Made by a program: the position numbers and the translations under genes. A DNA stretch of 64,000 nucleotides, taken from assembly GCA_035403965.1 (NCBI GenBank), contig DAONGE010000002.1:64466-128465 (forward strand), given 5' to 3'. This document shows, one piece after another, positions 45,826 to 64,000 of the stretch; the stretch's first letter is position 1; every line of letters begins with the position of its first letter. Source of the DNA: Candidatus Omnitrophota bacterium. Its GTDB lineage: Bacteria; Omnitrophota; Gorgyraeia; Tantalellales; Tantalellaceae. A model generated the notes under the pieces. The model had not been told where the DNA came from and searched no databases. It worked only from the letters and a program-made list of their open reading frames with translations.

Positions 45826-45877
45826 TATCCGCCAGTCAGGTATGGTATTTTATGCCCCATGGCCCGGTATTTTTCTG

Positions 45878-45906
45878 TTGCATATTCAGGAACAGAAGTA
45901 TATAAT
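45878..45906 (+). promoter_or_regulatory. Sigma70-type promoter (TTGCAT-17 nt-TATAAT) for gap
   Basis: The -35 lies at 45878-45883 and the -10 at 45901-45906, with an RBS AGGAGG before the ATG at 45986. Confidence 0.6.
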
Positions 45907-45910
45907 TTGA

Positions 45911-47050
<1,140 letters not shown>

Positions 47051-47075
47051 TAGCCTGTAAAATAGGGTGTTTGAA

Positions 47076-47108
47076 GGGGCGGTTCATCGGGAACCGCCCC
47101 TTTTTATT
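47076..47108 (+). terminator. Rho-independent terminator after gap
   Basis: A 10-bp GC stem (ggggcggttc/gaaccgcccc) with loop atcgg is followed by TTTTTATTT. Confidence 0.8.
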
Positions 47109-47146
47109 TAGTGGTCGGTTATTTTCGGATTTGTGGTCAGCTTGCA

Positions 47147-47352
47147 GTATAAAGTCCGAACGGTAAGATCCCTTCCCCCAAAATTTTTTAACGTATTTTT
47201 TATCGCTTTTCAGGGGGCATGCAAAAACTCGCCCCCCATGTGTTCCTATATCCGTCGGGGCTCAGACATTTGCATGCCTGTTTCCCTGAAAAGCTCAAAA
47301 AATACTAAAATTTTGAAGGGGCCCCTTGGATCTTGCCGTTTGGACTTTATTC
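47147..47352. repeat. Long imperfect palindrome (about 205 bp, MITE-like / long hairpin) element 1
   Basis: The outer arms gtataaagtccgaacggtaagatcc (47147-) and ggatcttgccgtttggactttat (-47350) are near-perfect reverse complements. Inner arm segments also match, with the centre near 47250. Confidence 0.55.
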
Positions 47353-47484
47353 CGCACCAGAACCCCCCAAACTCCGGTTGGGGGGTGAATAGGGATGCCG
47401 AACACATGGTGTTCGATGCGGGATTCCGCAATAAAAAGGAACTGCAGATTCCTGTTCGAGGGGCTCCATGATATGCGATGAGGT

Positions 47485-47718
47485 GGGGAGAAGGTTCAAT
47501 TTTGAAGTGAATACGATTTTCCCAAGAATTTTTTGACAATTTTGGGAACCCTTGGAATGGAAATGACAAGGGCGGCGAGGACTGTTTGAGGTTTAACGGG
47601 GTATGTGTTCTGCTAAAGAACATATATCCCGTTAAACCGAGTTCCGCAGACGCCAAAATTGGCGAGAAATTCTTGGGAAAAGAAAATCGTCTGAACGAAA
47701 AAATTGAACCTTCTCCCC
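47485..47718. repeat. Long imperfect palindrome (about 235 bp, MITE-like / long hairpin) element 2
   Basis: The outer arms are ggggagaaggttcaatttt...cgattttcccaagaatttt and gagaaattcttgggaaaagaaaatcg...aaaattgaaccttctcccc. A central 21-bp hairpin lies at 47590-47638. Confidence 0.55.
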
Positions 47719-47875
47719 ATTCGGCGGAAGAAAAGGCAAAATGGACAAAAGGGGGGGGACTATGGGCAAAAAACCTTTGCCTAAAGGGCGGAAGTATGCT
47801 ATAAATATTGACCTACGCAAGGGGCTTTTTCTGTGTAAAAACATTGCATAGCCCTATAATAATGGAGGGGGAAAC

Positions 47876-49054
47876 ATGAAGAAAACCGTTAAAGATGTGC
47901 AGATCAAGGGTAAAAGAGTGTTGATGCGCGTTGATTTCAACGTGCCTCTCGACGAAAAGAGAAATATAACGGATGACAGCCGTATAACGGCCGCTCTTCC
48001 GACGATAGAATACGTGCTCCAGAACGGTGGAAAACTTATATTGATGAGCCATCTCGGTCGTCCGGACGGGGAAGTTATGATGGAATATTCCATGGCCCCT
48101 GTCGCCGAAAGACTTTCCGAGCTTCTCAAACTGAACGTCAAGAAACTTGATGATTGCGTGGGAGAAGACGTTGAAGAAGCTGTAAGGCAGATGAAGGCAG
48201 GAGAAGTGGTTCTCCTTGAAAACCTGAGGTTCCATAAGGGCGAGACAAAGAACGACCCGGTTTTCGCGAAACAGCTAGCTTCTTTAGGCGACGTATTCGT
48301 TATGGATGCGTTCGGTACTTGCCACAGGGCGCATGCTTCTACCGAAGGTGTTACAAAATACCTTCCGAGCGTCGCGGGATTCCTGGTCGGCAAGGAAATA
48401 GAATATTTCGAAAAAGTCACGAAGAATCCAGAAAAGCCGTTCACCTTGATACTGGGCGGCGCGAAAGTTTCGGATAAGATCCCGGTCATTGAGAATATGC
48501 TGAAGAGAGTGGATTTTTTGCTTATCGGCGGCGCGATGGCATACACGTTTCTTAAGTCCAGAATGAAGGGCATAGGAAATTCCAAGGTGGAAGATAAAAT
48601 GCTTCCTACCGTTAATAAGATATTCGAGCTTGCCAGTGTGAATAAAGTCGGTATTTTCCTTCCGAAAGATCATGTTGTCGTGAAAGAGGTCAAAGAAGGA
48701 ACAAAGAGCAAGGTTGTTACAGAGCATATTCCGGATGGCTGGATAGGCCTTGATATCGGTCCCGAGACGATAAAAAGTTTTAAGTCTGTTCTTGAAGATT
48801 CCAAAACTATCGTTTGGAACGGTCCGATGGGGCTATTTGAAATGAAGCCGTTCGATGAAGGTACGAATGAATTGGCGAAATGCATGGCTAAACTTAAAGC
48901 CACTACCGTGATAGGCGGAGGCGATACGGCGGCCGCGGTAAATGAACTCGGGCTCGGCGATAAGATGTCGCATGTTTCGACCGGCGGCGGAGCTTCTCTG
49001 GAATATCTTGAAGGAAAGATCCTTCCGGGTATAGCGGCTTTGAACGATAAATAA
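47876..49054 (+). CDS. pgk: Phosphoglycerate kinase
   Basis: It has RVDFNVPLD, ILMSHLGRP, the hinge and the C-terminal GGGDT..A. Confidence 0.9.
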   Translation: MKKTVKDVQIKGKRVLMRVDFNVPLDEKRNITDDSRITAALPTIEYVLQNGGKLILMSHLGRPDGEVMMEYSMAPVAERLSELLKLNVKKLDDCVGEDVEEAVRQMKAGEVVLLENLRFHKGETKNDPVFAKQLASLGDVFVMDAFGTCHRAHASTEGVTKYLPSVAGFLVGKEIEYFEKVTKNPEKPFTLILGGAKVSDKIPVIENMLKRVDFLLIGGAMAYTFLKSRMKGIGNSKVEDKMLPTVNKIFELASVNKVGIFLPKDHVVVKEVKEGTKSKVVTEHIPDGWIGLDIGPETIKSFKSVLEDSKTIVWNGPMGLFEMKPFDEGTNELAKCMAKLKATTVIGGGDTAAAVNELGLGDKMSHVSTGGGASLEYLEGKILPGIAALNDK

Positions 49055-49082
49055 TTTAAGAAAAGATCGAGAGGAACATAAA

Positions 49083-49856
49083 ATGAGAAAACCTGTAATA
49101 TCCGGGAATTGGAAAATGTATAACGATATACCCGCGGCGGTAAGCCTTGTGGAAGGAATAAAGAAAGGCGTGACAGGAGTGAATAACGTAGAGATGATAG
49201 TTATTCCGCCTTATATCGATATCGCGTGTGTAAAAGAAGCCGTAAAAGGGAGCATGATAGGTTTCGGGGCGCAGAATCTACATTGGGAAGAGGAAGGCGC
49301 TTTTACGGGAGAGATCTCGGCGAAAATGCTGAAAAGCGCGGGATGCCAGTATGTGGTGATTGGGCACTCCGAAAGAAGAAAATATTTCGGTGAAACGGAT
49401 GAAACCGTGAACCGTAAAGTTAAAGCGGCCATTCAACACGGCATCATACCTATAATGTGTGTCGGGGAAACTCTTGAGGAAAGAGAATCCGGTAAAACGA
49501 TGAATGTGGTCAAACAGCAGGTAGAAGGCGGGCTAAAAGGGTTAGACGCTGATTTTCTTAAAACGTTGATCATTGCGTACGAACCTGTATGGGCGATTGG
49601 AACGGGAAAGACGGCAACTCCGGCCCAGGCGCAGGAAGTTCATGCTATGATAAGAAAACTGTTAGCTGCGCTGTATTCCGCGGGATTTTCCGCCGCATGC
49701 AGGATACTTTACGGCGGCAGTGTGAAACCTGATAACGTTGAATCGCTCATGAAAGAAGAAGATATAGACGGAGGATTGATCGGCGGAGCGAGTCTTAAAG
49801 CCGATAGTTTTATAGACATGGTAAAGACCACGTCAAAATTGTACGCAAACAAGTGA
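49083..49856 (+). CDS. tpiA: Triosephosphate isomerase
   Basis: It has ISGNWKM, VIGHSERR, AYEPVWAIGTGKTA and GGSV. Confidence 0.9.
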   Translation: MRKPVISGNWKMYNDIPAAVSLVEGIKKGVTGVNNVEMIVIPPYIDIACVKEAVKGSMIGFGAQNLHWEEEGAFTGEISAKMLKSAGCQYVVIGHSERRKYFGETDETVNRKVKAAIQHGIIPIMCVGETLEERESGKTMNVVKQQVEGGLKGLDADFLKTLIIAYEPVWAIGTGKTATPAQAQEVHAMIRKLLAALYSAGFSAACRILYGGSVKPDNVESLMKEEDIDGGLIGGASLKADSFIDMVKTTSKLYANK

Positions 49857-49868
49857 GGATAAAGAAAA

Positions 49869-50306
49869 ATGTATTATGTTCTGATAGCGATCCATGTTGT
49901 GGTTTGTATATTTCTGATTGCCGTTATTCTTCTCCAGGCGGGAAGAGGCGGCGGGCTTAACGAGGCTTTTGGCGGTGCTACCGAATCTATTCTTGGTACG
50001 CAGGCTCCGAATATGCTGAAGAAAGCTACCGAGATAGGAGCGATATTATTCATGGTTATATCGCTGCTTCTGGCTATAATGACTGCTCGAAGCGGTAAGT
50101 CGCTGTTCCAGCAGATGGGTGTTCCCGTATTGCCGCAGATGCCGGTTTCGGCTCCGGCGGCCGCGGGTTCGCAGCCGGCGCAATCGTCATCGGCCGGTCA
50201 GACACAGGCGGCTCCTGTACAACAGGCCGTACAGCAAGTCCCGGCGCCGGTTCAGGCTCCGGTTAAAGCCGCCCAACAGGCTCAGGCCCCGGTGGAGAAT
50301 AAGTAA
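49869..50306 (+). CDS. secG: Preprotein translocase subunit SecG with extended Pro/Ala/Gln-rich C-terminal tail
   Basis: The N-terminus has TM1 and LLQ.GRGGGL...FGG, typical of SecG. It follows gap-pgk-tpiA, the conserved operon arrangement. Confidence 0.75.
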   Translation: MYYVLIAIHVVVCIFLIAVILLQAGRGGGLNEAFGGATESILGTQAPNMLKKATEIGAILFMVISLLLAIMTARSGKSLFQQMGVPVLPQMPVSAPAAAGSQPAQSSSAGQTQAAPVQQAVQQVPAPVQAPVKAAQQAQAPVENK

Positions 50307-50322
50307 AGAACATAGACCTAAT

Positions 50323-51960
50323 ATGGTTTTATGTAAAAATATAAAGATAATAAAACGACCGTTGTTTGCTCTGCAGACAGCGGTCGTTTTATTGTTAGTA
50401 TCCTGTTCGCCGTTATATTCCCAGGAGAAAGAAGATGCTATCCCGCGAGACGCGTATGTTATTTCCAGTATAGGTGACGCGCGGGTTCTCCTCCCGATGC
50501 TTGCCGATGACGCTACATCGGCCGGCATATGCGGTCTTATTTATAACGGCTTAACAAAAATAGGGAGAGATCTTAATATCGTGGGAGATCTCGCTGAAAG
50601 ATGGGAGATCTCCGGTGACGGTCTTATTATAACATTTTATCTGAAAAAGAATGTGAAATGGCATGATGGCGCGGCCTTCACAGCGGACGATGTGAAATTT
50701 TCGTTTGAAAAAATATTGGACACTGCTTCAGGATCGCCGTATATTTCAGGATATACGGATATAAAAAAGATAGAGGTTGTTGATAAATACACGGTCCGCT
50801 TTGAGTATAAACAACCGTATTCGGGGGCATTGGTTAAACTCGGAATGGGGATAATTCCGAAACATATTTTTGAGAAAGAACCGGATATAAGAAGATCTGT
50901 TTACGCTCGGGCTCCTATCGGTACGGGACCTTATAGATTTTCAAAATGGGAGAGTGGGCAATACATGATCCTGGAGGCGAATGAAGGATATTTTGAGCAC
51001 GCGCCGGGGATAAAATATTATGTATTCAGGATAATACCCGATCAATCCGTTGAATTCCTGGAACTTGTCTCGGGTGGTATAGACGCGATGAGGCTCAATT
51101 CGTATCAATATAAATACCGGAGTGAGACCCCGGAATTTTCCGGGCGTATCAATAAATATTCCACGTTGGCCCCGACCTACACCTATATAGGATATAACCT
51201 GAAAGATCCGGTACTTTCGGATCTGAGGGTCAGGAAGGCGCTGAGTTACGCGATAAATAAAAAAGAGCTGATAGATGCGGCGCTTTTTGGTTTCGGAGAG
51301 CCGTGTACCGGCCCTTTTAGGAAAGATTCAGTTTATTATGATCAGTCGGTCACGATGTATGAGTACGATCCGGAAAAGGCAAAGACGCTCTTGGCCGAGG
51401 CGGGGTGGAAAGATACGGACGGGGACGGGATACTTGAAAAGGACGGAAAAGAGTTCCGTATCGAGCTTGTGACGAACCAGGGTAATCAGGAGAGGGAGGA
51501 CGTCGCGACGATAGTACAGCGGGAATGGGCTAAGGTTGGCGTTAAGATGGAAATTAAAGTCGTAGCGTGGGCGGCCTTTCTCGATCAGTTCATCGATAAG
51601 AAAAAATTCCAGGCCATACTACTCGCGTGGGTCATTCCGATAGATCCCGATCTTTACGCGGTGTGGCATTCGGATTCCATCGAGAACGGCGGGTTGAATT
51701 CTATTTCGTATTCGAATAAAGAAGTGGATAAGCTCATAGAGGCCTCGCGCAGAGAGCTTAACGTCGAGAAGAACGCGGCCATTTGTCACAAGATACACAG
51801 GATACTGGCCGAAGAAGCGCCGTATACGTTTTTGTTTTTCGGATATTCTCAGATAGGGATAAATAAGCGTTTTTCCGGCGTGGATCCTGCCCCGGCAGGA
51901 GTCGGATATAATTTTGAGGATTGGTATGTTGATGAAAAAGAAGTTAAATATAAATTTTAG
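50323..51960 (+). CDS. Peptide/nickel ABC transporter substrate-binding protein (family 5, OppA/DppA-like), probable lipoprotein
   Basis: The ATG at 50323 follows the secG stop. The signal peptide has an LLVSCSP lipobox, and the SBP_bac_5-like body is flanked by opp-type permeases. The 5' extension in the track overlaps secG and is rejected. Confidence 0.75.
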   Translation: MVLCKNIKIIKRPLFALQTAVVLLLVSCSPLYSQEKEDAIPRDAYVISSIGDARVLLPMLADDATSAGICGLIYNGLTKIGRDLNIVGDLAERWEISGDGLIITFYLKKNVKWHDGAAFTADDVKFSFEKILDTASGSPYISGYTDIKKIEVVDKYTVRFEYKQPYSGALVKLGMGIIPKHIFEKEPDIRRSVYARAPIGTGPYRFSKWESGQYMILEANEGYFEHAPGIKYYVFRIIPDQSVEFLELVSGGIDAMRLNSYQYKYRSETPEFSGRINKYSTLAPTYTYIGYNLKDPVLSDLRVRKALSYAINKKELIDAALFGFGEPCTGPFRKDSVYYDQSVTMYEYDPEKAKTLLAEAGWKDTDGDGILEKDGKEFRIELVTNQGNQEREDVATIVQREWAKVGVKMEIKVVAWAAFLDQFIDKKKFQAILLAWVIPIDPDLYAVWHSDSIENGGLNSISYSNKEVDKLIEASRRELNVEKNAAICHKIHRILAEEAPYTFLFFGYSQIGINKRFSGVDPAPAGVGYNFEDWYVDEKEVKYKF

Positions 51961-53890: not shown

Positions 53891-54700
53891 ATGAATATTA
53901 TGTACAACATACTTGATGTAACAGATCTGACCATATCTATCGGTGGCCGGAAGGTCGTGGATAATGTAGGTTTTTCCGTTCCTCAGGGAGGGGTGCTGGC
54001 GCTTGTTGGTGAGTCCGGGAGCGGCAAGACCATGACAGCCATGGCGATATTAAAACTTCTGCCGCCCGCGGCTAAGATAGAAAAAGGTAAAATAATATTC
54101 CGCGGAGAAAATATTCTTGAAAAAAAAGAGCGCGATATGAGAGGAATACGCGGCAGACGTATCGGTATGGTTTTTCAGGAGCCCTTTACCGCGCTTAATC
54201 CGGTGATGCGCGCCAGTGATCAGATAGCAGAAACATTGATTGCGCACGGTATTTGTAAAAAACAGGATCTTAACGCGCGTGTGAATGATCTTCTGGGAAT
54301 GGTTAAGTTGCCGATAGAAGTGAGAGGAAAATATCCCCATGAATTGTCAGGTGGGATGAGGCAGCGCGTTATGCTCGCGATAGCGCTTTCGTGCGATCCG
54401 GAATTTCTTATACTGGATGAGCCTACCACAGCGCTGGACGTGATGCTTCAAAAACATATCTTGGATACTATAAAACATATACAGAGGGAGCGCAGAATAA
54501 CGACACTTTTTATCACGCATGATCTTTCGGTGGTGAATATGCTTGCCGATAATGTTTGCGTTATGAGGAACGGTCTTGTTGTCGAATCGGGGTCGCGTTT
54601 GGACGTATTAAAGTCGCCGCAGAAAAAATACACGCAGCATTTGATAAGCTGTATCCCGGTCCTGGGGGATAAAAGACGTCGTTTGCCGGTGGAAATATAA
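53891..54700 (+). CDS. ABC transporter ATP-binding protein (OppD/DppD-like)
   Basis: It has Walker A GESGSGKT, signature LSGGMRQR and Walker B ILDEPTTALD. Confidence 0.85.
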   Translation: MNIMYNILDVTDLTISIGGRKVVDNVGFSVPQGGVLALVGESGSGKTMTAMAILKLLPPAAKIEKGKIIFRGENILEKKERDMRGIRGRRIGMVFQEPFTALNPVMRASDQIAETLIAHGICKKQDLNARVNDLLGMVKLPIEVRGKYPHELSGGMRQRVMLAIALSCDPEFLILDEPTTALDVMLQKHILDTIKHIQRERRITTLFITHDLSVVNMLADNVCVMRNGLVVESGSRLDVLKSPQKKYTQHLISCIPVLGDKRRRLPVEI

Positions 54701-54709
54701 GGAAATTCA

Positions 54710-55435
54710 ATGATAAAGCTCGATAACGTAAAAAAATATTTCAGACAGAACACGATGTTCGGAACGGCCGCGAATATCGTGAAAGCTGTAGATGGCGTAA
54801 GCTTTTCTGTCGATAAGGGGAAAACATTCGGTCTTGTAGGCGAGTCCGGATGCGGGAAGACCACATTGTCGAAACTGATTACGGGGCTTATTGAGCCGGA
54901 TAGTGGTAGCGTAAAGGTGTCTGGAGACGTCGATATGGTTTTTCAGGATCCTTTTAGCTCTTTAAATCCGCGCATGACGATCGAGGAAATAATAGCTGAA
55001 CCTCTTCTTGTCAGGGGAATTAAACGGTCAGCCGCTTTGACAAAAGTCGCCGAAACGCTGAATATGGTGAAACTTGGCAGACGCAGCGTTCTTAAAGGAT
55101 ATCCGCATCAATTCTCTGGCGGCGAGCGACAGAGGATAGCTATCGCACGAGCGATTATACGCCGTCCGGCGGTGTTGATCCTGGACGAACCGGTATCGAG
55201 CCTCGATGTTTCGATACAGGCCAGCATACTGAATCTTCTTAAAGATATCCAGGAAGAATTGGCTCTAACATATATTTTTATTTCACACGATCTTCGTGTG
55301 GTTGAATTCATGTCGGATATCATCGGTGTGATGAAGGATGGAACGCTTATTGAGATTGCTTCGTGCGATGATATTTATAGCTCGCCGAAACATGAATATA
55401 CGCGTCGGCTTATAAGTGCAATCCCGACTATTTGA
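54710..55435 (+). CDS. ABC transporter ATP-binding protein (OppF/DppF-like)
   Basis: It has Walker A GESGCGKTT, signature FSGGERQR and Walker B ILDEPVSSLD. Confidence 0.85.
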   Translation: MIKLDNVKKYFRQNTMFGTAANIVKAVDGVSFSVDKGKTFGLVGESGCGKTTLSKLITGLIEPDSGSVKVSGDVDMVFQDPFSSLNPRMTIEEIIAEPLLVRGIKRSAALTKVAETLNMVKLGRRSVLKGYPHQFSGGERQRIAIARAIIRRPAVLILDEPVSSLDVSIQASILNLLKDIQEELALTYIFISHDLRVVEFMSDIIGVMKDGTLIEIASCDDIYSSPKHEYTRRLISAIPTI

Positions 55436-55590
55436 GCATGAAAGATTTTTGGCGTTTTTAATATAGGTATCATTTGATTTGCTGGAAAATAATTCTATTG
55501 TCTAAATATTTGTATAAATGATATAATGTGTTAGCTCAAATAACAGACAGTTTTAGATCTGAAATAAAAATGCGGTAACTGCGAAAAAAT

Positions 55591-58500
55591 ATGATGAGGA
55601 TTCCTCAATACATAAAGCAGGTAGTCCGAAAATGTGCGATATGTAGTATCGTTTTGATTTTTCCTTTCAGTAATTTTTGTCCTCCAAATCAAGTGTTTGC
55701 ACAGGAAAGCCGGAATGCGACCCTAAACATATGGACTTATACCCAGAATGCCCCGGTTGCGCGAGAATTTTTAGCGGACGAATATAAAAAAAGTGGTTTT
55801 TTCCGGGAAATAGAAGGTGCGACAGCCGAGACGGCAAGGTATAGTGAGTTGCTTGAAAACGGTGCTGTTGATGCCGTTCCAATGCCGTCAGGGGTATATC
55901 TTATACGCGGGAAAACCTTGTCGGAACCTTTGTCGTTAATACGTGCTGTCATATATGCGGATTATAAATTAATGACCGAAAGAGAGATGCGTGAGCATGC
56001 TGCAAGGTATGAGGAATTAGAGAGACACATCCTGATGTCTGAAGAATTCGAGGAAGCACGCGAACTGTATACAAAGATAGATCCCGCAACGAAACAGAAC
56101 GGTGATATTTGTTTAGCGAGATTTATCGCGAAGGCGTTTGAACTCGATATGCTTGTGACGAACCGGTTGATAGATCGGAAAGATCTCAGCATGGAAGAAT
56201 TGTCGTTTTTTGCGATGGTGGATCCTCTGCTTCGAGAGAAGGAGGAAAGTGGGGAATATAAAAATTTTCCGGCAATATTTTTCAATGCCGCGGAACGGAT
56301 GGAAAGCGTTCTGGGGCTGGCCGGAAGAGACTCGGATGTTGGCAGATACTTAGCCGGAAGGCCTAAACTGCCCAACATGATGATGGCGGTAAATTTGATG
56401 GATGTAGGGTCTGAGGTGATAGACGGGCAGGTCGTATACCGTAACAGTCTGCGTAAACTTAGGGCTATGTTGCCCGGATTCGCGGAGGACGGTTTTGAAA
56501 AGATATACATCTATGGTGGGCTTTATGAAATGGGGGAACTGTCGAGAAAAGTGCATCAGGTGCCTGATGAGAGTAGATATTTTATAAGGGACGGGAACGC
56601 TACTGTGATGGTCGAAAGATATCTGACCAAGCGGAAACAAATGGGGAATTTGACTCTCAAGGATTCTTTTGGCAATCCGTTCTCGATAAAAGGAATGGCG
56701 AAATGGAATGCCGGTCTTTCCGAAAGCAATGTAGAGAAGGATGTTAATGACCTGATGGAAACCGCACGTGCCCTTAAAATTAAAATGGTGGCGGATTTTA
56801 TCCCGTGGCTCTCGCCGGGCGCGATCAGCGTCGATAATTACAAGATGACTTTTTACAGCGAAATATCCGAGTATGAGAATAATGAATTTAGGAACATGTC
56901 GAATGAGGAAGAAAAAAGTAGATGGATCGAGCGTCTTCTGTCCAGAAATGGCGGGCGTTGTGCGGTAAGGATAACCGAGGGTGATGTAGAACGTGTGATA
57001 TTGGTACATCATCTAAGATTTTATGGAAGCCATAGTTCGGATCAGGTCATGTTAAATCCATATAGTTCCGCGGTAAGACAATATTATAAAGACTCATTGA
57101 AAAGATTTATAGACCTTGGTTTTGACGAAGTTCGTGTGGATCAAGCGGCGCTATTATTATCAAAAAACCTTTCGGAATATGGTATTTATGGACCGTGGCC
57201 GGTAACCGTAACCAATAATGATGAGATGTGGTGTGAAGTGATAAGTTTCGCTAAAGAATATGCGATGCGAAAAGGAAAAAGTATCAAGCTTAATATGGAA
57301 ACATACGATTCCTTTGAGCAAGGGGCGTTGCTCGGCATGGGGGCGGATCGTGTGTATGACGGTGATATATTCGACACATTTTATTATTTGGGTCGAGGGC
57401 ACGGATGCGCCAGGGCGTTGGATCTGCCCGTAAAAAAAGCGCTGGAAGACGGGGATAGAGATCTTATATATCCTACCAATTTTGATCAGATGTCACTTAA
57501 AGCCATCGGCGGCGCTACAAAAGGATTCACGATGCTTCTTATTGCTTTATCTCATCTTGGTGTGAATTCTATGGTGGATATGCGGGAATATCTTGGGGAG
57601 ATGGGGCACATTATACCCATTGTCGGGGGCAATAATTCCGGTAAGGATGGACATCCTTTTCTGGAGGAGACGGAGCTGGAGAGCAGACAGACTTTTGACG
57701 ATCTTATGAGACTTGCCCGTGAGTCGGAATGGAAACGGCTCGCTATGGAATTCAACCGTGCCGTGACAACGAGAGAAGGAACGGATATACGTACGCTGAA
57801 CAATTCGGATACGGAAAGATTTTTTTCCATAATATGGAAGACGGAAGCAAATACATGGCAAATGCTTACGATCGATACAGATCCCGCTAAGCCGAAAACG
57901 TTGGTAAAGGTCGAGCTTCCGCGCGATTATGTGAGAATTAACGGAGATAGCAGAAAAATATCGGCATTTTGCGCTATGCCGGACGGCGGTCATGCGGAAG
58001 CCGGACTTTCAAACTGGGGAGATGGGGAAAATCTTTCGGATGTGGTTGAAGTGCCGTTCGGAGAAAGAGAAGAATATAAACTTGTAACAGTCGTACAGGA
58101 TGATTCAGGGGCTTTTTACCGTATAAGGGCGCAAAATGACCGATCATTCAGTTTGATGGATGAAATAAAAAAGGCCGCGGAAAATCTCAGAAAAACGGTC
58201 AAAGAATCACTGATGTCATTTTCAGCTTCGTTCGGTGAGGTGCGGAAGCATATTTGTGAGGTCAACGATGTTTCAAAATTGAGTGTCTGTATGCCGATCG
58301 ATGTTTTGAAAAGGACCGTGGATATCCCAATGATGGCTCGTGGGAATATATTAATAGCCAGGACGCTTCAAAAAAAGAATATTTCCTTCGAGCTTGTTAT
58401 TACCGGAGTTGAAGAGACGGACATGGACAGCGTGACCGCTCTCGGTAAACAGCAAATAAAAAAGCTGCTTAATATCTCGGACGATTTTATTGTAAAGGTT

Positions 58501-58917
58501 GTTACCGAAAAAGAAATGGAAAGGATAGCCGAAGATTTTCCCAGCCATGGATATGATGCCAACACGGTTATTGGAAGGGCGCGTATTGTAAAAGATATGC
58601 ATGAAGGGAAACTGAAAAAAGGCGAATATATGGCCGTTGTCACGGATGACATGTCCGAACAGGAAGCGGACGAAGTTCGTGGTACCTTTATGCGAGAGGA
58701 AGCCGACAATAGCAGAATATCTTTTCTGCTGCCGGTCAGTAGCGACGGAGCAAGAATATTTCTGTTTTCGGATATGCTGAATGAATGGCTAAAAAAAGTG
58801 AATAAAGGTGATATATTCACGGTTCAGAAGATCATGCCGCCCATCTGCTCAAAAGAGGCCGCCAGGGCTGTAGAGCAGGCCGCGAAGAATCTATGGAAGG
58901 TTTTGTCCGCTGCATAA
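55591..58917 (+). CDS. Large secreted hypothetical protein (1108 aa) with weak TIM-barrel GH13-like motif
   Basis: It has an N-terminal signal peptide. The motifs IKMVADFIPW and GFDEVRVDQAA resemble GH13 regions I and II. It is preceded by an AT-rich 155-bp promoter region. Confidence 0.35.
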   Translation: MMRIPQYIKQVVRKCAICSIVLIFPFSNFCPPNQVFAQESRNATLNIWTYTQNAPVAREFLADEYKKSGFFREIEGATAETARYSELLENGAVDAVPMPSGVYLIRGKTLSEPLSLIRAVIYADYKLMTEREMREHAARYEELERHILMSEEFEEARELYTKIDPATKQNGDICLARFIAKAFELDMLVTNRLIDRKDLSMEELSFFAMVDPLLREKEESGEYKNFPAIFFNAAERMESVLGLAGRDSDVGRYLAGRPKLPNMMMAVNLMDVGSEVIDGQVVYRNSLRKLRAMLPGFAEDGFEKIYIYGGLYEMGELSRKVHQVPDESRYFIRDGNATVMVERYLTKRKQMGNLTLKDSFGNPFSIKGMAKWNAGLSESNVEKDVNDLMETARALKIKMVADFIPWLSPGAISVDNYKMTFYSEISEYENNEFRNMSNEEEKSRWIERLLSRNGGRCAVRITEGDVERVILVHHLRFYGSHSSDQVMLNPYSSAVRQYYKDSLKRFIDLGFDEVRVDQAALLLSKNLSEYGIYGPWPVTVTNNDEMWCEVISFAKEYAMRKGKSIKLNMETYDSFEQGALLGMGADRVYDGDIFDTFYYLGRGHGCARALDLPVKKALEDGDRDLIYPTNFDQMSLKAIGGATKGFTMLLIALSHLGVNSMVDMREYLGEMGHIIPIVGGNNSGKDGHPFLEETELESRQTFDDLMRLARESEWKRLAMEFNRAVTTREGTDIRTLNNSDTERFFSIIWKTEANTWQMLTIDTDPAKPKTLVKVELPRDYVRINGDSRKISAFCAMPDGGHAEAGLSNWGDGENLSDVVEVPFGEREEYKLVTVVQDDSGAFYRIRAQNDRSFSLMDEIKKAAENLRKTVKESLMSFSASFGEVRKHICEVNDVSKLSVCMPIDVLKRTVDIPMMARGNILIARTLQKKNISFELVITGVEETDMDSVTALGKQQIKKLLNISDDFIVKVVTEKEMERIAEDFPSHGYDANTVIGRARIVKDMHEGKLKKGEYMAVVTDDMSEQEADEVRGTFMREEADNSRISFLLPVSSDGARIFLFSDMLNEWLKKVNKGDIFTVQKIMPPICSKEAARAVEQAAKNLWKVLSAA

Positions 58918-59010
58918 TATCTTTCGAGCATAGTGCATCAGTCAGGTCGGTTCGCGTTTTTGGCAGTTGTTATCAACGTTCAAAATCATATGATCAAGTT
59001 TGTGTTACCA

Positions 59011-59075
59011 TGTGTTTGTAATATGCAATTCTAGCTTAAGGGGCGAGTGCCTGTCGCGGGAGGATATATGAAGAC
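59011..59075 (+). repeat. Duplicated copy of the 60076-60140 gene-leader (promoter-like + hairpin + RBS + ATG)
   Basis: It is about 80% identical to 60076-60140 over 65 nt, including gtaatRtRYaattctagcttaagggg...gggaggatatatgaag. Confidence 0.6.
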
Positions 59076-59088
59076 TCAAATCTTTTGT

Positions 59089-59241
59089 TTCACACGATCT
59101 TCGTGTGGTTGTATTCATGTCGGATATCATTGGAGTGATGAAGGATGGAGCGCTTGTTGAAATTGCTTCATGTAATGATATTTATAGCGCACCGAAACAT
59201 GGATATACATGTCGTCTAATTAATGCAATCCCGGGTATTTA
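59089..59241 (+). pseudogene. Remnant 3' end (51 codons) of a second OppF-like ABC ATPase gene, fused out of frame to a duplicated leader/start codon
   Basis: It is about 85% nucleotide identical to 55283-55435. The reading frame is intact but carries conservative substitutions (SHDLRVVVFMSDIIGVMKDGALVEIASCNDIYSAPKHGYTCRLINAIPGI*). There is no start codon, and the junction lies at atattttRtttcac. Confidence 0.6.
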
Positions 59242-59339
59242 ATTCAGGTGTTTCTAATTTATATTTGAATGGAATTGACAGTAAAAGCTTGGACTGTTAA
59301 AATCATCACAATGTTGATTTTAAAAAATAGGAGGGGTCA

Positions 59340-59870
59340 ATGAAAAAGGTGAATTTTTACATTATTTCGATGATATTAGTTTTATCAATAGCCTCGGTTG
59401 CGCATGCCGAAAAAAAATATTATAACGGACATTGGTATGAAACCGTTTATGCAGTAAATGGAGGGCTGGATCAGACATGGGATCAGTCCAGGTCTATGGC
59501 ACAAGCTCTGGGGGGAGATCTTGTCACAATAAACGATGCCGCTGAAAATGCTTGGCTTGTGGAGAATATGTTTAGCGGCACACACAGCACAATGTGGATA
59601 GGGATGTATCGTTATGGAAGCTTAAATGAATGGGCATGGGCCAGTGGGGATCCGATTAGTTATACACAGTTATCTTTTGAGGAAGTCCCGTATGATATGT
59701 ATTTGGGAAATTATGTTACATTGTTTGGAGATGGTAAATGGGGCGTAAGTGTAGGAAGTTATATCGGTGCCGGTATCGCCGAGGGGGCTGTTACTCCTGA
59801 GCCGGCATCAATGGCGCTTTTCGGTTTAGGGGCGTCTGCGTTGGCGTTTGTAAGGCGTAAAAAGAAATAA
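59340..59870 (+). CDS. PEP-CTERM-anchored C-type lectin-like domain protein (putative exosortase substrate)
   Basis: It has a signal peptide, a CTLD-like WIGMYRYG...EWAWASGDP region, and a C-terminal VTPEPASMALFGLGASALAFVRRKKK (PEP motif, TM helix, basic tail). Confidence 0.65.
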   Translation: MKKVNFYIISMILVLSIASVAHAEKKYYNGHWYETVYAVNGGLDQTWDQSRSMAQALGGDLVTINDAAENAWLVENMFSGTHSTMWIGMYRYGSLNEWAWASGDPISYTQLSFEEVPYDMYLGNYVTLFGDGKWGVSVGSYIGAGIAEGAVTPEPASMALFGLGASALAFVRRKKK

Positions 59871-59880
59871 TTTTGAAATT

Positions 59881-59920
59881 ATGATGGGGTGGGGATTTAA
59901 TCGCCACCCCATCATATTTA
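59881..59920 (+). terminator. Stem-loop terminator-like element after the lectin gene
   Basis: A 12-bp perfect stem (atgatggggtgg/ccaccccatcat) with an 11-nt loop is followed by ATTTA. Confidence 0.5.
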
Positions 59921-60136
59921 GTAAGTAAAAAATCCGGATCCCAGTCAGATGATTGGCGAGAGGGCATCATAGCCGCCATACAATTCTACATATTGGGAAT
60001 GTCGTGCTCCCTGCCGTTGCAGATTCATCAGATATAATTATTTATAAAGAACAAAATATAAATCGGATTTGTTCAACTATGTATTGGTAATGTATAATTC
60101 TAGCTTAAGGGGCAAGAACATGCCCCGGGAGGATAT

Positions 60137-60916
60137 ATGAAGGCACAGATATTTTATTTCACCGGTACCGGTAATTCGCTGAAAATAGCTAAAGATCTCG
60201 CGGACGAGCTCGGCGGCGCGGATGTGGTCAATATCGCGAAGATCAAAGACGTAGAAGTTTGTCTGTCCGGAGAAACGATAGGGATAGTATGCCCTGTTTA
60301 CGCGTTCGGATTGCCGTTCGCGGTGGTGGATTTCATTAAAAAAATAAAAGATTCTAAGGATAGGTACTTTTTTGCGGTAGTGAATTTCGGAGGCATGGGT
60401 GGCAGCGCGCTTCATATAATGGAAAAGACACTGGCCGAACGGGGGATCGCGTTGAGCTCCGGGTTCGGTATAAAAATGCCGGATAACTACATCCCCTGGA
60501 TGGGGGAAATAGATAAGGAAGGTAATGAGAAGATATTGGAACAGGAAGAACAAAGAATAAAACAAATAGCTTCTATTATAAAAGAGAAGAGAGAGCATAA
60601 AAAAGAATTCGGGAATGTTTTAACCAATGTTATTGGAAAGGCTGTTCATAGACTTTTTACTAAGCACATGAATCGCGCGGATAAAAAATTCTGGGTGAAC
60701 GATAAATGTAATAGCTGCGGCATATGTGCAAGGATATGCCCGTCGGATAATGTGAAATTGGAGAATGGCAAACCGAAGTGGGATCACAAGTGCCAATTTT
60801 GTCTTGCCTGTATACAATGGTGTCCGTCTTCCGCCATACAATATGGGGAGAAGTCTGTTGGCAAAGGAAGATACCATAATTCGAGAATTGACATTAAGGA
60901 AATGATGTTGTCGTAA
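60137..60916 (+). CDS. EFR1-family ferredoxin (flavodoxin-like N-domain + two 4Fe-4S clusters)
   Basis: The N-terminus (MKAQIFYFTGTGNS) is flavodoxin-like. Two Cys clusters are present, CNSCGICARICP and CQFCLACIQWCP. Confidence 0.65.
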   Translation: MKAQIFYFTGTGNSLKIAKDLADELGGADVVNIAKIKDVEVCLSGETIGIVCPVYAFGLPFAVVDFIKKIKDSKDRYFFAVVNFGGMGGSALHIMEKTLAERGIALSSGFGIKMPDNYIPWMGEIDKEGNEKILEQEEQRIKQIASIIKEKREHKKEFGNVLTNVIGKAVHRLFTKHMNRADKKFWVNDKCNSCGICARICPSDNVKLENGKPKWDHKCQFCLACIQWCPSSAIQYGEKSVGKGRYHNSRIDIKEMMLS

Positions 60917-60937
60917 CCGATAAAAACGGAGACCTGT

Positions 60938-61222
60938 ATGGACAAAGACGCTATCATCGAAGCCTCGATCCGTGAGATAAAAGTTTTCATGCCATTTTTT
61001 GTCTTTTTTATAGTGTTGAGCGTTTTTGGGGCCACAAGCCGAAATTCCATAGCCGGGAACCTTTACACGAAATTCTATCTTAGCCTTTTTTTACTGCATT
61101 TGTCGTCATGGATCATTATATATGTGATTTTTAGAAGCGTCATAGTGATAAAAAGGATGATGAAGGATGAACAGAAACAATTGCTTGGGAAACGGAAAGG
61201 ATCTGGTCCCTCCTCTCGTTGA
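60938..61222 (+). CDS. Small hypothetical membrane protein (2 TM)
   Basis: This ORF has two hydrophobic helices. It overlaps the annotated start of the downstream hydrolase, so one of the two starts is wrong. Confidence 0.25.
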   Translation: MDKDAIIEASIREIKVFMPFFVFFIVLSVFGATSRNSIAGNLYTKFYLSLFLLHLSSWIIIYVIFRSVIVIKRMMKDEQKQLLGKRKGSGPSSR

Positions 61223-62045
61223 ATGCGACGGTGTTTTGTGCAGGAAATGGGGGCTTGAGGACCCGGACTGCGTTTTGGTCTTAGTACACGGCATGGGTGC
61301 GCACAGCGCACGGTGGATGTTTCTCGCGGAAGCGATGCTGAAAAACAATGTTGCGTCTTATGCCATAGAGCTAGACGGGTTTGGAATGACTTCGGGGCAT
61401 AAAGGGTATGTGGATTCTTTCACGACATATTTCAAAAAAATAAAGGCCTTGGCGGAACTTGCCGCGAGCGAGAATAAGGGGAAAAAGATCTTTCTGGCCG
61501 GTGAAAGCATGGGAGGGTTGATATCTTTCTCAATGATAAAGGAAACGGATCTTTTCGGCGGGTTGATCTGTATCTCTCCGGCTTTCAGAAGCGGTATGAA
61601 AATGAACCTGGGGTTTTTGACGGAGATAATGCTTGCGGCCGTTTTTGATAAAAAGAAACAGTTCGAGATGCCGTTCACTTCGGCGATGTGTACTAAAGAT
61701 GTGTGGTATCAGGACGTGATGGATATGGAGCGGGCTGAACACAGGCTGGCGACGCCGACGTTATTGCTTGAGATATTAAAATATCAGTCGATGGCGTTCT
61801 CTCCGAAACATGAAATAAACGTGCCGGTGCTTTTTCTTTTGGCCGGAAGCGATAAACTTGTGGATGTGGAAGCCTCGGAAGATGTATATAAAAAAATGAG
61901 AACGAAGGACAAAGAAATAATAGAATATGACGGCGCGTATCACGCGTTGTCGATAGATACATGCCGGGAAAAAGTTTTCCGGGATATTATGGGATGGATA
62001 ACGCGGCATAAGAAGAACGACGCAGATTGGGAAACGTGTATATGA
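61167..62045 (+). CDS. Alpha/beta hydrolase (lysophospholipase / monoacylglycerol lipase family)
   Basis: It has an HGMGAHS oxyanion region, a GESMGG nucleophile elbow, and C-terminal Asp/His. The start is uncertain. Confidence 0.65.
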   Translation: MNRNNCLGNGKDLVPPLVECDGVLCRKWGLEDPDCVLVLVHGMGAHSARWMFLAEAMLKNNVASYAIELDGFGMTSGHKGYVDSFTTYFKKIKALAELAASENKGKKIFLAGESMGGLISFSMIKETDLFGGLICISPAFRSGMKMNLGFLTEIMLAAVFDKKKQFEMPFTSAMCTKDVWYQDVMDMERAEHRLATPTLLLEILKYQSMAFSPKHEINVPVLFLLAGSDKLVDVEASEDVYKKMRTKDKEIIEYDGAYHALSIDTCREKVFRDIMGWITRHKKNDADWETCI

Positions 62046-63523
62046 AATGTATACTTGCCATAGATCAGGGGACCACGGGAAGCCGGGCTATACTTTACGA
62101 TAAAAAAGGAAACAAAATAGCCAGCGCTTATGAGGAGTTTCCGCAGTATTTTCCTAAACCTGGCTGGGTTGAACATGATCCGGAAGAAATATGGGCCAGT
62201 GTTAATAATTCCATACAGAAGGTTATGTCGGAAACGAGAGACGCCGAAGTTCAGGCGATCGGAATAACTAATCAGCGGGAAACAACGGTGATATGGGACA
62301 GAAAGACGGGCGAACCCGTCTATCGGGCGATAGTGTGGCAGTGCAGAAGAACGGCCGGACGGTGCGATAAATTGAAAAAAGACGGGAGAATAGGCGGGTT
62401 CTTCAGGGAAAGTACGGGCCTTCCGATAGACGCGTATTTTTCGGCCACAAAAATAGAATGGATACTCCGCAACGTAAAAGATGCCGCCCGGCGGGCAAGG
62501 TCGGGCGAATTGTGTTTTGGCACAACGGATTCGTGGGTTTTATGGAAGCTTACCGGGGGAAGGGAGCATGCCACGGATTTTACCAACGCGTCGCGTACAA
62601 TGCTTTTTAATATAGAAAAAAAAGAATGGGACAAGAAGATCTTACATAAATTTAGGATACCGGAGCGGATGCTTCCGGATGTTAAAAGGTCTTCCGGTGT
62701 TTTTGGACGAACCGCGCGTATAGGAAAACTTCCGGCCGGGATACCTATATGCGGGATAGCCGGAGACCAGCAGGCCGCGCTTTTCGGGCAGGCGTGTTTT
62801 GAGCCGGGAAGTATAAAAAACACATATGGAACGGGATGTTTCGTGCTTCTTAACGCTGGAAAGAACAAGCCGTCAACGAAGCACGGTTTGATCATTACTT
62901 TAGGATGCGGGAAAAAGGGTGAACCTGTTTATGTGCTTGAAGGTTCTATATTCATCGGCGGGGCTGCTGTACAATGGCTGAGGGACGGTATTAAAATAAT
63001 AAATTCCGCAAAAGAAAGCAAAGGCATGTCCGAGAGTTTAACGGATAATGAGGGGGTTTATTTTGTTCCGGCTCTTGTTGGGCTTGGTGCGCCTTATTGG
63101 GACCAGAACGCACGCGGCGCGTTATTCGGCATAACAAGGGGGACCAGGAGAGAACATCTGGTCAGAGCTGCGGTGGAAGCTATGTGTTATCAGACCAAGG
63201 ATGTTATTGATGCTATGCGCAGGGATACAGGGCTTTCTATCGAGCAATTAAAGATAGACGGAGGCGCGTCGGCCGATGATTTTCTGTGCCAGTTCCAGTC
63301 CGACATTTTAAGGAAGAAAGTAGTACGTCCGGTAGTCATTGAAACTACATCTTTGGGGGCGGCGTATCTGGCTGGCCTGGCGGTAGGTTTTTGGCGCAAT
63401 ACTGATGAAATAAAAAAATGCTGGCATGTGGACCGGGTCTTTTCTCCGCGTATGAAAAAAGAAACCGCTGCGAAATTTTACGCAGCTTGGCATAATGCCG
63501 TCAAAAGAACTCTTTCGGTTTAA
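62042..63523 (+). CDS. glpK: Glycerol kinase
   Basis: It has MKCILAIDQGTTGSR, QRETTVIWD and FGTTDSW (FGGY kinase family). ATGA overlaps the hydrolase stop. Confidence 0.85.
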   Translation: MKCILAIDQGTTGSRAILYDKKGNKIASAYEEFPQYFPKPGWVEHDPEEIWASVNNSIQKVMSETRDAEVQAIGITNQRETTVIWDRKTGEPVYRAIVWQCRRTAGRCDKLKKDGRIGGFFRESTGLPIDAYFSATKIEWILRNVKDAARRARSGELCFGTTDSWVLWKLTGGREHATDFTNASRTMLFNIEKKEWDKKILHKFRIPERMLPDVKRSSGVFGRTARIGKLPAGIPICGIAGDQQAALFGQACFEPGSIKNTYGTGCFVLLNAGKNKPSTKHGLIITLGCGKKGEPVYVLEGSIFIGGAAVQWLRDGIKIINSAKESKGMSESLTDNEGVYFVPALVGLGAPYWDQNARGALFGITRGTRREHLVRAAVEAMCYQTKDVIDAMRRDTGLSIEQLKIDGGASADDFLCQFQSDILRKKVVRPVVIETTSLGAAYLAGLAVGFWRNTDEIKKCWHVDRVFSPRMKKETAAKFYAAWHNAVKRTLSV

Positions 63524-63534
63524 GCGGGATATCG

Positions 63535-63999
63535 ATGAAACAGTATGATGTGATAATAATCGGCGGAGGGGTCACTGGAAGCGCCATCGCGCGGGAACTG
63601 TCGCGTTATAGACTCAAAGTTGCTTTGCTTGAAAAAGAGATAGAACTTGCCTTCGGTGTGTCAAAATCCAATAGCGGGATAATACATCCCGGTACACAGA
63701 ATCCTCCTGGATCACTGAAAGCCAAATTGTGTGTTGAGGGGAACAAGCTTATCCGACAGGTCGCGAAAGAGCTCGGTGTTGATTTTAAAGAAGTCGGCGA
63801 GCTGGTCGTGGTTTTCAGCGAAGAAGATATCCCAAAATTGCATGAATTAAAAAAGGAAGCGGAGCTTATAGGGGTAGAAGGCGTAGAGGTAGTGGACAGG
63901 GATTGGCTTAAAAAGAACGAACCTAATCTCTCGGATGAAGTGGTCGCGGCGTTATACGCTCCCACCGCGGGAATAATCAGTCCGTACCGCCTTGTTTAC
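63535..63999 (+). CDS. FAD-dependent glycerol-3-phosphate dehydrogenase/oxidase-like oxidoreductase (3' partial, runs off window)
   Basis: It has YDVIIIGGGVTGSAIAREL (GxGxxG FAD-binding), and its glpK neighbour supports the call. Confidence 0.6.
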   Translation, partial: MKQYDVIIIGGGVTGSAIARELSRYRLKVALLEKEIELAFGVSKSNSGIIHPGTQNPPGSLKAKLCVEGNKLIRQVAKELGVDFKEVGELVVVFSEEDIPKLHELKKEAELIGVEGVEVVDRDWLKKNEPNLSDEVVAALYAPTAGIISPYRLVY

Positions 64000-64000
64000 G

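Follow-up and report, generated by a model that had tools for sequence, protein, structure and literature searches.

A Very Probable Microhomology-Mediated Recombination Scar Built from oppF and EFR1 Gene Copies in a Candidatus Omnitrophota Bacterium

The DNA analysed here is a 64,000-nt window of a Candidatus Omnitrophota bacterium, and all positions given below are window coordinates. Between the gene of a 1108-aa protein and a lectin gene, the window contains a composite of about 260 bases that consists of two copied pieces, one from the start of an EFR1-family flavodoxin/ferredoxin gene and one from the end of oppF, the last gene of an oppABCDF operon. Whichever route led to it, this composite (58981-59242) is very probably the dead join point of a microhomology-mediated illegitimate recombination. 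The copies that were joined may have been two already-diverged versions of the oppF-to-EFR1 interval, a reading that we adopt tentatively. Calling the parent-type pieces O (oppF) and L (EFR1) and their copies in the scar O′ and L′, the repeats follow the order O - gene1 - L′::O′ - gene2 - L, all on the + strand, with the outer parent genes oppF and EFR1 intact. The junction is of the head-to-tail type, the end of the interval (the EFR1 head) being joined in direct order to its start (the oppF tail), as is the outcome of an illegitimate crossover of the duplication type.

The copied pieces and their join

The elements that make up the scar, together with their parents, are the following.

55276..55433, + strand: repeat O, parent-type, 158 nt of oppF that end just ahead of the stop
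58981..59093, + strand: repeat L′, relic of the EFR1 promoter region, 5′ leader, ribosome-binding site (RBS), ATG and first 26 coding nt
59068..59160, + strand: 30-codon open reading frame (ORF) from the relic ATG, MKTQIFCFTRSSCGCIHVGYHWSDEGWSAC followed by a stop, out of frame with the oppF-derived part
59083..59093, + strand: join point, the overlap of L′ and O′; the microhomology reads TTTTGTTTCAC here and differs from both parents by one substitution
59083..59242, + strand: repeat O′, what is left of an oppF copy, namely its last 52 codons and the stop, in an open frame
60052..60162, + strand: repeat L, working EFR1 promoter region, leader, RBS GGAGG, ATG at 60137 and first 26 nt

The oppF-derived half is observed directly as an ungapped alignment of 158 nt between 59083-59240 and 55276-55433, with 137/158 identical positions (87% identity, E 1e-47). 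The similarity, which the original prediction had put at about 85% over 153 nt, is thus far beyond chance. The O′ stretch yields matches to the oligo_HPY and OppF C-terminal models that cover the C-terminal end only. It comprises just the last 52 codons, without the Walker motifs, and so falls short of a complete OppF nucleotide-binding domain. To the tail of the paralogous oppD its DNA is merely 56% identical.

The peptide encoded by O′ shares 42 of its 52 amino acids with the local OppF, and none of the 119 other closest homologues exceeds 36 of 52. For the local OppF, a search of 5.8 billion proteins gave a next-best homologue of 68% identity and no protein at 69-99% identity. Because the nearest relative of O′ among these 5.8 billion proteins is the neighbouring oppF, the fragment does not represent a separate opp family, and on these comparisons it is best placed as a sister of the adjacent gene. 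It had been proposed that the piece derives from a paralogous gene and not from a decayed direct copy. As regards a distinct paralog family, the proposal finds no support in view of the 42/52 versus at most 36/52 identities, while the sequences lean towards its other element, a copy that once functioned.

Ten amino acid differences separate O′ from OppF. Two of them, I to V and E to V, are located at positions that are invariant in the 119 homologues, and another, R to C, at a position restricted in them to R or K. These three changes indicate that the fragment is decaying under relaxed constraint. At one position, O′ retains the V that is found in 93% of the homologues, while the working oppF has I, and both lineages have therefore changed after their split.

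The EFR1-derived half aligns over 95 nt without gaps (58999-59093 with 60068-60162, 75/95 = 79% identity, blastn E 9e-19), the offset between the leader copies being 1069. This bears out the duplication of leader, RBS and ATG that had been proposed, although the original pairing of 59011-59075 with 60076-60140 was about 4 nt out of register. A gapped upstream extension by about 30 nt, to approximately 58970-58981 and 60042-60052, is marginal (14/300 shuffles), and the homology fades, with indels, just 5′ of the −35 region. In L, the −10 box TATAAT occupies 60093-60098 and is followed by a 6-bp GC hairpin at 60109-60126 (−13.8 kcal/mol, z −1.8). In L′, the box reads TGCAAT, with the second-position A lost, and the hairpin is weakened such that its fold scores no better than shuffles. 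Two blocks are perfectly preserved between the copies, one of 18 nt after the −10 box (AATTCTAGCTTAAGGGGC, 60096-60113, copy 59027-59044) and one of 17 nt that includes the RBS and the start (CGGGAGGATATATGAAG, 60126-60142, copy 59057-59073). The mismatches are thus clustered, with the two blocks bracketing the variable GC hairpin, and the probability of a second-longest run of at least 17 is 0.008. The block AATTCTAGCTTAAGGGGC holds the palindromes CTAG, AGCT and CTTAAG; judged by its letters, it could be an operator.

The leader core is found only twice within the 64 kb, even when up to 3 mismatches are allowed. An exact scan of metagenome contigs with this core returned one unrelated chance match (locus L011), the collection evidently being without contigs of this organism. 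No part of the window has a gathering-score match in Rfam, and a permissive scan of 58850-60250 gave no leader match at E <= 10. These results lend no support to the suggestion that the leader is a portable promoter module.

The two halves meet on an 11-nt microhomology, TTTTATTTCAC, which is identical in both parents (55276-55286 in oppF and 60152-60162 in the EFR1 gene); the join had indeed been expected to lie at a microhomology shared by the parent genes. As both parent sequences adjoin the scar, the crossover is readable to within 11 bases.

From the relic ATG at 59068, the sequence reads MKTQIFCFT..., compared to MKAQIFYFT in the real EFR1 gene. The oppF-derived frame begins at 59084 and is shifted by one base from that of the relic ATG, such that the fusion is out of frame, in agreement with the original prediction. 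The same frame is open, as had also been noted, running for 52 codons to a stop at the homologous position, TAA here versus TGA in oppF. The claim that the fusion lacks a start codon is right only in part. Reading of the bases reveals no GGAGG-type ribosome-binding site before GTG 59105 or ATG 59117, but these two codons do exist in the oppF-derived frame, in which gene callers give 45-aa and 41-aa ORFs. A +1 slip on the T-run 59083-59086, which could bring the oppF tail into the frame of the relic ATG, was also considered and was dropped, as there was no evidence for it.

The scar is now very probably non-functional, as was assumed when it was first described as a rearrangement relic. This follows from the out-of-frame fusion, the changed −10 box and the hairpin at shuffle level, and also from the presence of a strong promoter-like site 3′ of the scar that belongs to the lectin gene itself.

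Divergence of the copies and the DNA between them

The differences between O and O′ comprise 10 synonymous and 11 non-synonymous ones, corresponding to a synonymous divergence (dS) of 0.36, a non-synonymous divergence (dN) of 0.10 and a dN/dS of 0.27. Using our own binomial estimates of P, based on the site counts of the dN/dS calculation, a regime in which both copies are neutral is rejected (P about 0.01), as is one in which both are constrained at omega 0.1 (P about 0.008). There are zero indels in the 158 + 95 = 253 aligned nt despite 41 substitutions. The O/O′ homology ends exactly at the stop codon, anchored extension beyond it being no better than 142/300 shuffles, and both edges of the homology, i.e., the stop codon and the point just 5′ of the −35 region, are functional boundaries. 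The divergence of the two halves is compatible with a single age (Fisher p 0.12). The dN/dS of 0.27, the lack of indels, the clustering of the leader mismatches and the end of the homology at the stop codon together suggest that the copies diverged partly as working genes before the fusion, a conclusion towards which the sequences lean without deciding it.

The DNA enclosed by the repeats presents a different picture. The stretches 55434-58980 and 59241-60051 share no significant similarity, meaning that the two copies of the interval hold unrelated DNA. The spacer 55436-55590 has no homology to the sequence after the O′ fragment, and no residual homology is found 3′ of the stop codons. The interval copies are therefore not homologous throughout, and under a duplication either a later replacement or a pre-existing difference is needed. 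Neither segment is flanked by inverted repeats. The sole long ORFs in 55436-60136 are those of the 1108-aa and lectin proteins, and neither protein has a transposase or integrase domain. The composition of the 1108-aa gene is typical of the window (GC 0.445, GC3 0.457, tetranucleotide correlation 0.899 versus a mean of 0.901) and gives no support to the proposal that this gene or the lectin gene arrived as foreign DNA.

The comparison with other genomes places the break in synteny precisely. Three relatives, with OppF proteins 66-68% identical, share the order gap-pgk-tpi-secG-oppABCDF and continue with leuC-leuD-leuB-asd-truA, so that synteny in the present genome breaks exactly at the oppF stop codon (55435/55436). 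The leu cluster is absent from the 15-17 kb 3′ of oppF that are covered by contigs L001 and L003. On the EFR1 side, the nearest homologue is 48% identical and there is no orthologous leader for comparison; a genome-collection scan with the EFR1 protein gave a single match, 35% identical, in an Oscillospiraceae locus that is useless for synteny. Since the relatives differ 3′ of oppF, the homologues of EFR1 are distant and the full-length homologue of the 1108-aa protein has other surroundings, the ancestral oppF...EFR1 interval is unreadable from the available genomes. In other Omnitrophota, the leu-side order continues as truA-rplM-rpsI (loci L012, L014, L015 and L016).

Routes to the junction

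In the route that we tentatively prefer, two versions of the interval would have diverged as working genes, each with a different slot gene, for the 1108-aa protein and for the PEP-CTERM lectin, respectively. At the microhomology, a single illegitimate crossover would then have joined the start of the EFR1 copy (promoter, leader, ATG and 26 nt) to the tail of the oppF copy. It would have left a direct duplication of the form 'oppF tail ... EFR1 head', with the intact oppF and EFR1 genes outermost, and after the fusion the scar would have decayed, doing nothing. As to where the second copy came from, the simplest assumption would be that a related lineage supplied one version, which was integrated through a homologous end on one side and an illegitimate end on the other, i.e., by homology-facilitated illegitimate recombination (HFIR). 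An older duplicate within the same genome would be the alternative source. A single crossover between diverged copies would account at once for the junction, for the unrelated contents and for both the boundaries and the rate pattern.

A number of points weigh against this route. Neither for oppF nor for the leader was a second version seen anywhere, with nothing at 69-99% identity to oppF among 5.8 billion proteins, and the donor or duplicate is thus hypothetical. In the closest sampled relatives, oppF is followed by leuCDB and not by EFR1, and a donor with an oppF...EFR1 neighbourhood would have to lie far nearer than all of them. The native-looking composition of the 1108-aa gene agrees with a close donor without pointing positively to import, and to our knowledge DNA uptake has not been documented in Omnitrophota. 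The statistics that lean towards purifying selection before the join rest on only 21 + 20 differences, and the clustered identity of L and L′ could also stem from short-patch gene conversion. Finally, a regime in which one copy is constrained and the other neutral from birth, with an expected dN/dS of about 0.5, is not rejected (P about 0.1-0.2).

The main rival is a one-step tandem duplication in situ between the oppF and EFR1 microhomologies, by unequal exchange or slippage, in which the junction would have been neutral from birth and the contents of the interval replaced or inserted later. In a variant of it, a duplication of about 270 bp over a short oppF-EFR1 spacer would have been followed by insertion of the 1108-aa and lectin genes at the same homologous point. 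We consider this a possible, if somewhat doubtful, origin. It represents the simplest known way to such a junction (PMC9997567), and it is consistent with the adjacent oppF being the nearest relative of O′, with the substitutions at invariant positions, with the compatibility of the two halves with a single age and with the native composition of the 1108-aa gene. The single microhomology base that differs from both parents is, moreover, what decay after the event predicts. However, as the repeats enclose nothing in common, one or two extra events are required, whose ends would have to coincide exactly with the stop codon and with the edge of the promoter. In addition, about 4.5 changes are expected in the two perfect leader blocks, while none is seen (P about 0.01 in our rough model, which takes the blocks to be constrained only in L). 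The dN/dS of 0.27 is also below the expected 0.5, although the difference is not significant, and the alignments contain no indels.

The original prediction envisaged a second opp-like operon. In its full form, a second complete operon would have been destroyed by the insertion of the 1108-aa and/or lectin segment, with only the 158 nt at the 3′ end of its oppF spared. A once-functional gene does agree with the open frame, the conserved position of the stop and the low dN/dS. Nevertheless, sensitive blastn and tblastx searches of 55200-60300 reveal no further opp or EFR1 fragments, that is, neither a remnant of oppA-D nor the first 190 codons of a second oppF, and O′ is a close sister of the local oppF instead of a distinct paralog. 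A second copy of the leader and EFR1 is also required and would be left unexplained, and the coordinates from which the idea started are not evidence for insertion over duplication. We therefore regard the second operon as improbable. Less credible again is the idea that the oppF-EFR1 slot is a recurrent exchange site at which lineages swap accessory genes of surface or secreted proteins, the conserved oppF tail and EFR1 leader serving as the flanks for recombination. The scar would in that case be a by-product with two alternative cassettes stacked in one genome, and the leader blocks might still be bound by a regulator or translated.

We have also considered a templated patch, where the repair of a break located between the 1108-aa and lectin genes would have copied about 113 nt of the EFR1 leader, then switched template, at the microhomology, to the 158-nt oppF tail and finally returned, without the genes ever being duplicated. 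Such a patch has the advantage that no duplication of the enclosed genes is needed, the microhomology being simply the point of the template switch. The exact end of the copied oppF piece at the stop codon would, on the other hand, be a coincidence, and the patch would have been neutral from birth, which entails the same problems with the rate pattern as in the one-step duplication. The extension alignment, furthermore, displays no microhomology at the two outer junctions. This origin is accordingly quite unlikely.

A role for the element at present, as an active promoter/leader module or operator or as a source of small proteins from the 30-codon or the 41-45-codon ORFs, has very little in its favour beyond the perfect 18- and 17-nt blocks, which include the RBS and the ATG, and the 41/45-aa ORF that gene callers place in the oppF-derived frame. 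Against it stand the loss of the second-position A of the −10 box and the degraded hairpin. The ORF that starts at the relic ATG is an out-of-frame reading of oppF, and the internal GTG and ATG have no GGAGG-type RBS before them. The leader, in turn, has only two copies in 64 kb and, apart from the chance match, none in the metagenome scan, and it is without an Rfam match.

The possibility that the junction is an assembly chimera, raised with the original prediction, was addressed with independent contigs. Nine contig stretches from five samples (ERZ795026, GCA_035352475.1, JGI 3300025858, ERZ27257449 and JGI 3300009694), with names in three assembler styles, show 100% identity over whatever part of the scar they cover. 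Any portion of theirs within 54000-64000 likewise matches the window at 100%, for up to 10 kb, and, with every contig of this species identical (clonal), there is no strain polymorphism at the scar. The longest exact run common to the repeat copies, which are 13-21% diverged, amounts to 24 nt. This is short relative to the k-mer sizes with which assemblers finish. The contig breaks, near 57941-57975, lie within the 1108-aa gene and away from the repeats. Misassembly is thus excluded as far as independent assemblies can show. A chimera at the repeats is a fair question for a metagenome-assembled genome, but nothing else was found in its favour, it would not generate diverged copies, and it can practically be dismissed.

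As to the contig breaks themselves, the contig ends of two samples lie close together (the end of L009 at 57941, the starts of L004 and L005 at 57964 and 57975, respectively), and a GC hairpin at 57962-57981, which gives a terminator-like match on the minus strand, is located at the same point. The break could correspond to a drop in coverage or to a strain-variable point.

Gene context and significance of the scar

All genes around the scar are on the + strand, in the order oppA-oppB-oppC-oppD-oppF, 1108-aa gene, lectin gene, EFR1, hydrolase and glycerol-kinase genes. The features that surround the repeats are as follows.

54710..55435, + strand: oppF/dppF-like ABC ATPase gene, intact, 241 aa, at the end of the oppABCDF operon
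55436..55590, + strand: AT-rich spacer with a promoter-like site for the 1108-aa gene (TTGTCT-18-TATAAT, 55498-55527)
55591..58917, + strand: gene of the 1108-aa protein, with a signal-peptide-like N-terminus, the slot gene of the first interval copy
59275..59303, + strand: lectin gene promoter-like site, TG-extended (TTGACA-17-TAAAAT, 11/12), 3′ of the scar
59340..59870, + strand: 176-aa C-type-lectin-domain gene with a PEP-CTERM anchor, the slot gene of the second interval copy
59877..59919, + strand: terminator-like hairpin 3′ of the lectin gene, a 43-nt self-complementary stretch (88%)
60137..60916, + strand: intact EFR1-family flavodoxin/ferredoxin gene, 259 aa (NCBIfam NF038196 6.4e-82, cutoff 75)

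The oppF product matches Pfam ABC_tran (6.9e-32) and oligo_HPY as well as the NCBIfam dipeptide/OppF models (1e-70 to 1e-75). The lectin gene product matches Pfam Lectin_C (3.2e-07) and PEP-CTERM (8.6e-07; TIGR02595).

The 1108-aa protein belongs to an uncharacterised family. It matches no Pfam or NCBIfam family, and a word-indexed search returned only the protein itself. A full HMMER scan gave 180 relatives, of which one (P0242, 43% identical) is full length; it sits in a different gene context, on a 3.8-kb contig. Giant proteins of 2,000-7,546 aa contain the central module of the protein (approximately aa 255-780), and the N- and C-terminal modules are also found on their own. Very weak local matches of aa 484-519 (E about 0.3) are to cyclodextrin glucanotransferases, and the protein may carry a divergent GH13-like domain.

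Some features upstream of the scar can also be mentioned. The lowest tetranucleotide correlations in the window are those of the 3.3-kb segments starting at 44501-48501 (0.78-0.84 versus a mean of 0.90), and the stretch of about 44500-51500 includes a 38-nt inverted repeat pair (47484-47521 and 47682-47719). The SecG-like ORF upstream of oppA (49869-50306, + strand) encodes 145 aa, compared to 116-131 aa in the relatives, with a long Ala/Gln/Pro-rich C-terminal tail. The longest oppA ORF (GTG 50119) overlaps it, and the true oppA start is therefore probably further downstream.

Illegitimate crossovers of the duplication type between sister chromosomes have been described in Acinetobacter at identities of 0-5 bp (PMC9997567), and cat-gene amplification in Acinetobacter baylyi offers an example of such tandem-duplication join points (PMC9997567, in its account of the work of Reams and Neidle). 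The present scar resembles these join points in its novel head-to-tail junction, the short identity at the crossover and the intact outer genes. It differs in that laboratory duplications are recent, with identical copies that collapse readily, whereas the copies here are 13-21% diverged (dS 0.36) and the DNA between the repeats is unrelated. The microhomology of 11 nt is, in addition, longer than the 0-5 bp of the Acinetobacter duplications.

In HFIR, the illegitimate joins are formed at 3-10 bp (de Vries and Wackernagel in 2002; Prudhomme and co-workers in 2002; Meier and Wackernagel in 2003; all as summarised in PMC6382021). Like the scar, such events have a single illegitimate join at a microhomology of short length, bring a different gene to lie between flanks that are conserved and duplicate part of the recipient sequence, and the divergence of 13-21% between the scar versions is within the range discussed for HFIR. 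What sets the present case apart is that for this organism neither a donor lineage nor a homologous anchor or an uptake system is known, and that a single genome is the basis from which the event is inferred. With gene-fragment pseudogenes such as truncated ABC ATPase relics, the scar shares the C-terminal remnant of 52 codons, the changes at invariant residues and the lack of evident translation signals. Unlike them, O′ is fused to the copied promoter, leader and ATG of an unrelated gene and thereby records its mechanism.

The rearrangement is of an ordinary, known kind and involves no new mechanism or system. For annotation, it calls for caution, since a 41-45-codon ORF called at the scar is a relic. 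For the uncultured phylum Omnitrophota, the scar provides a clean natural record of a microhomology-mediated join, and it shows how two unrelated genes of exported proteins came into tandem 3′ of a conserved opp operon.

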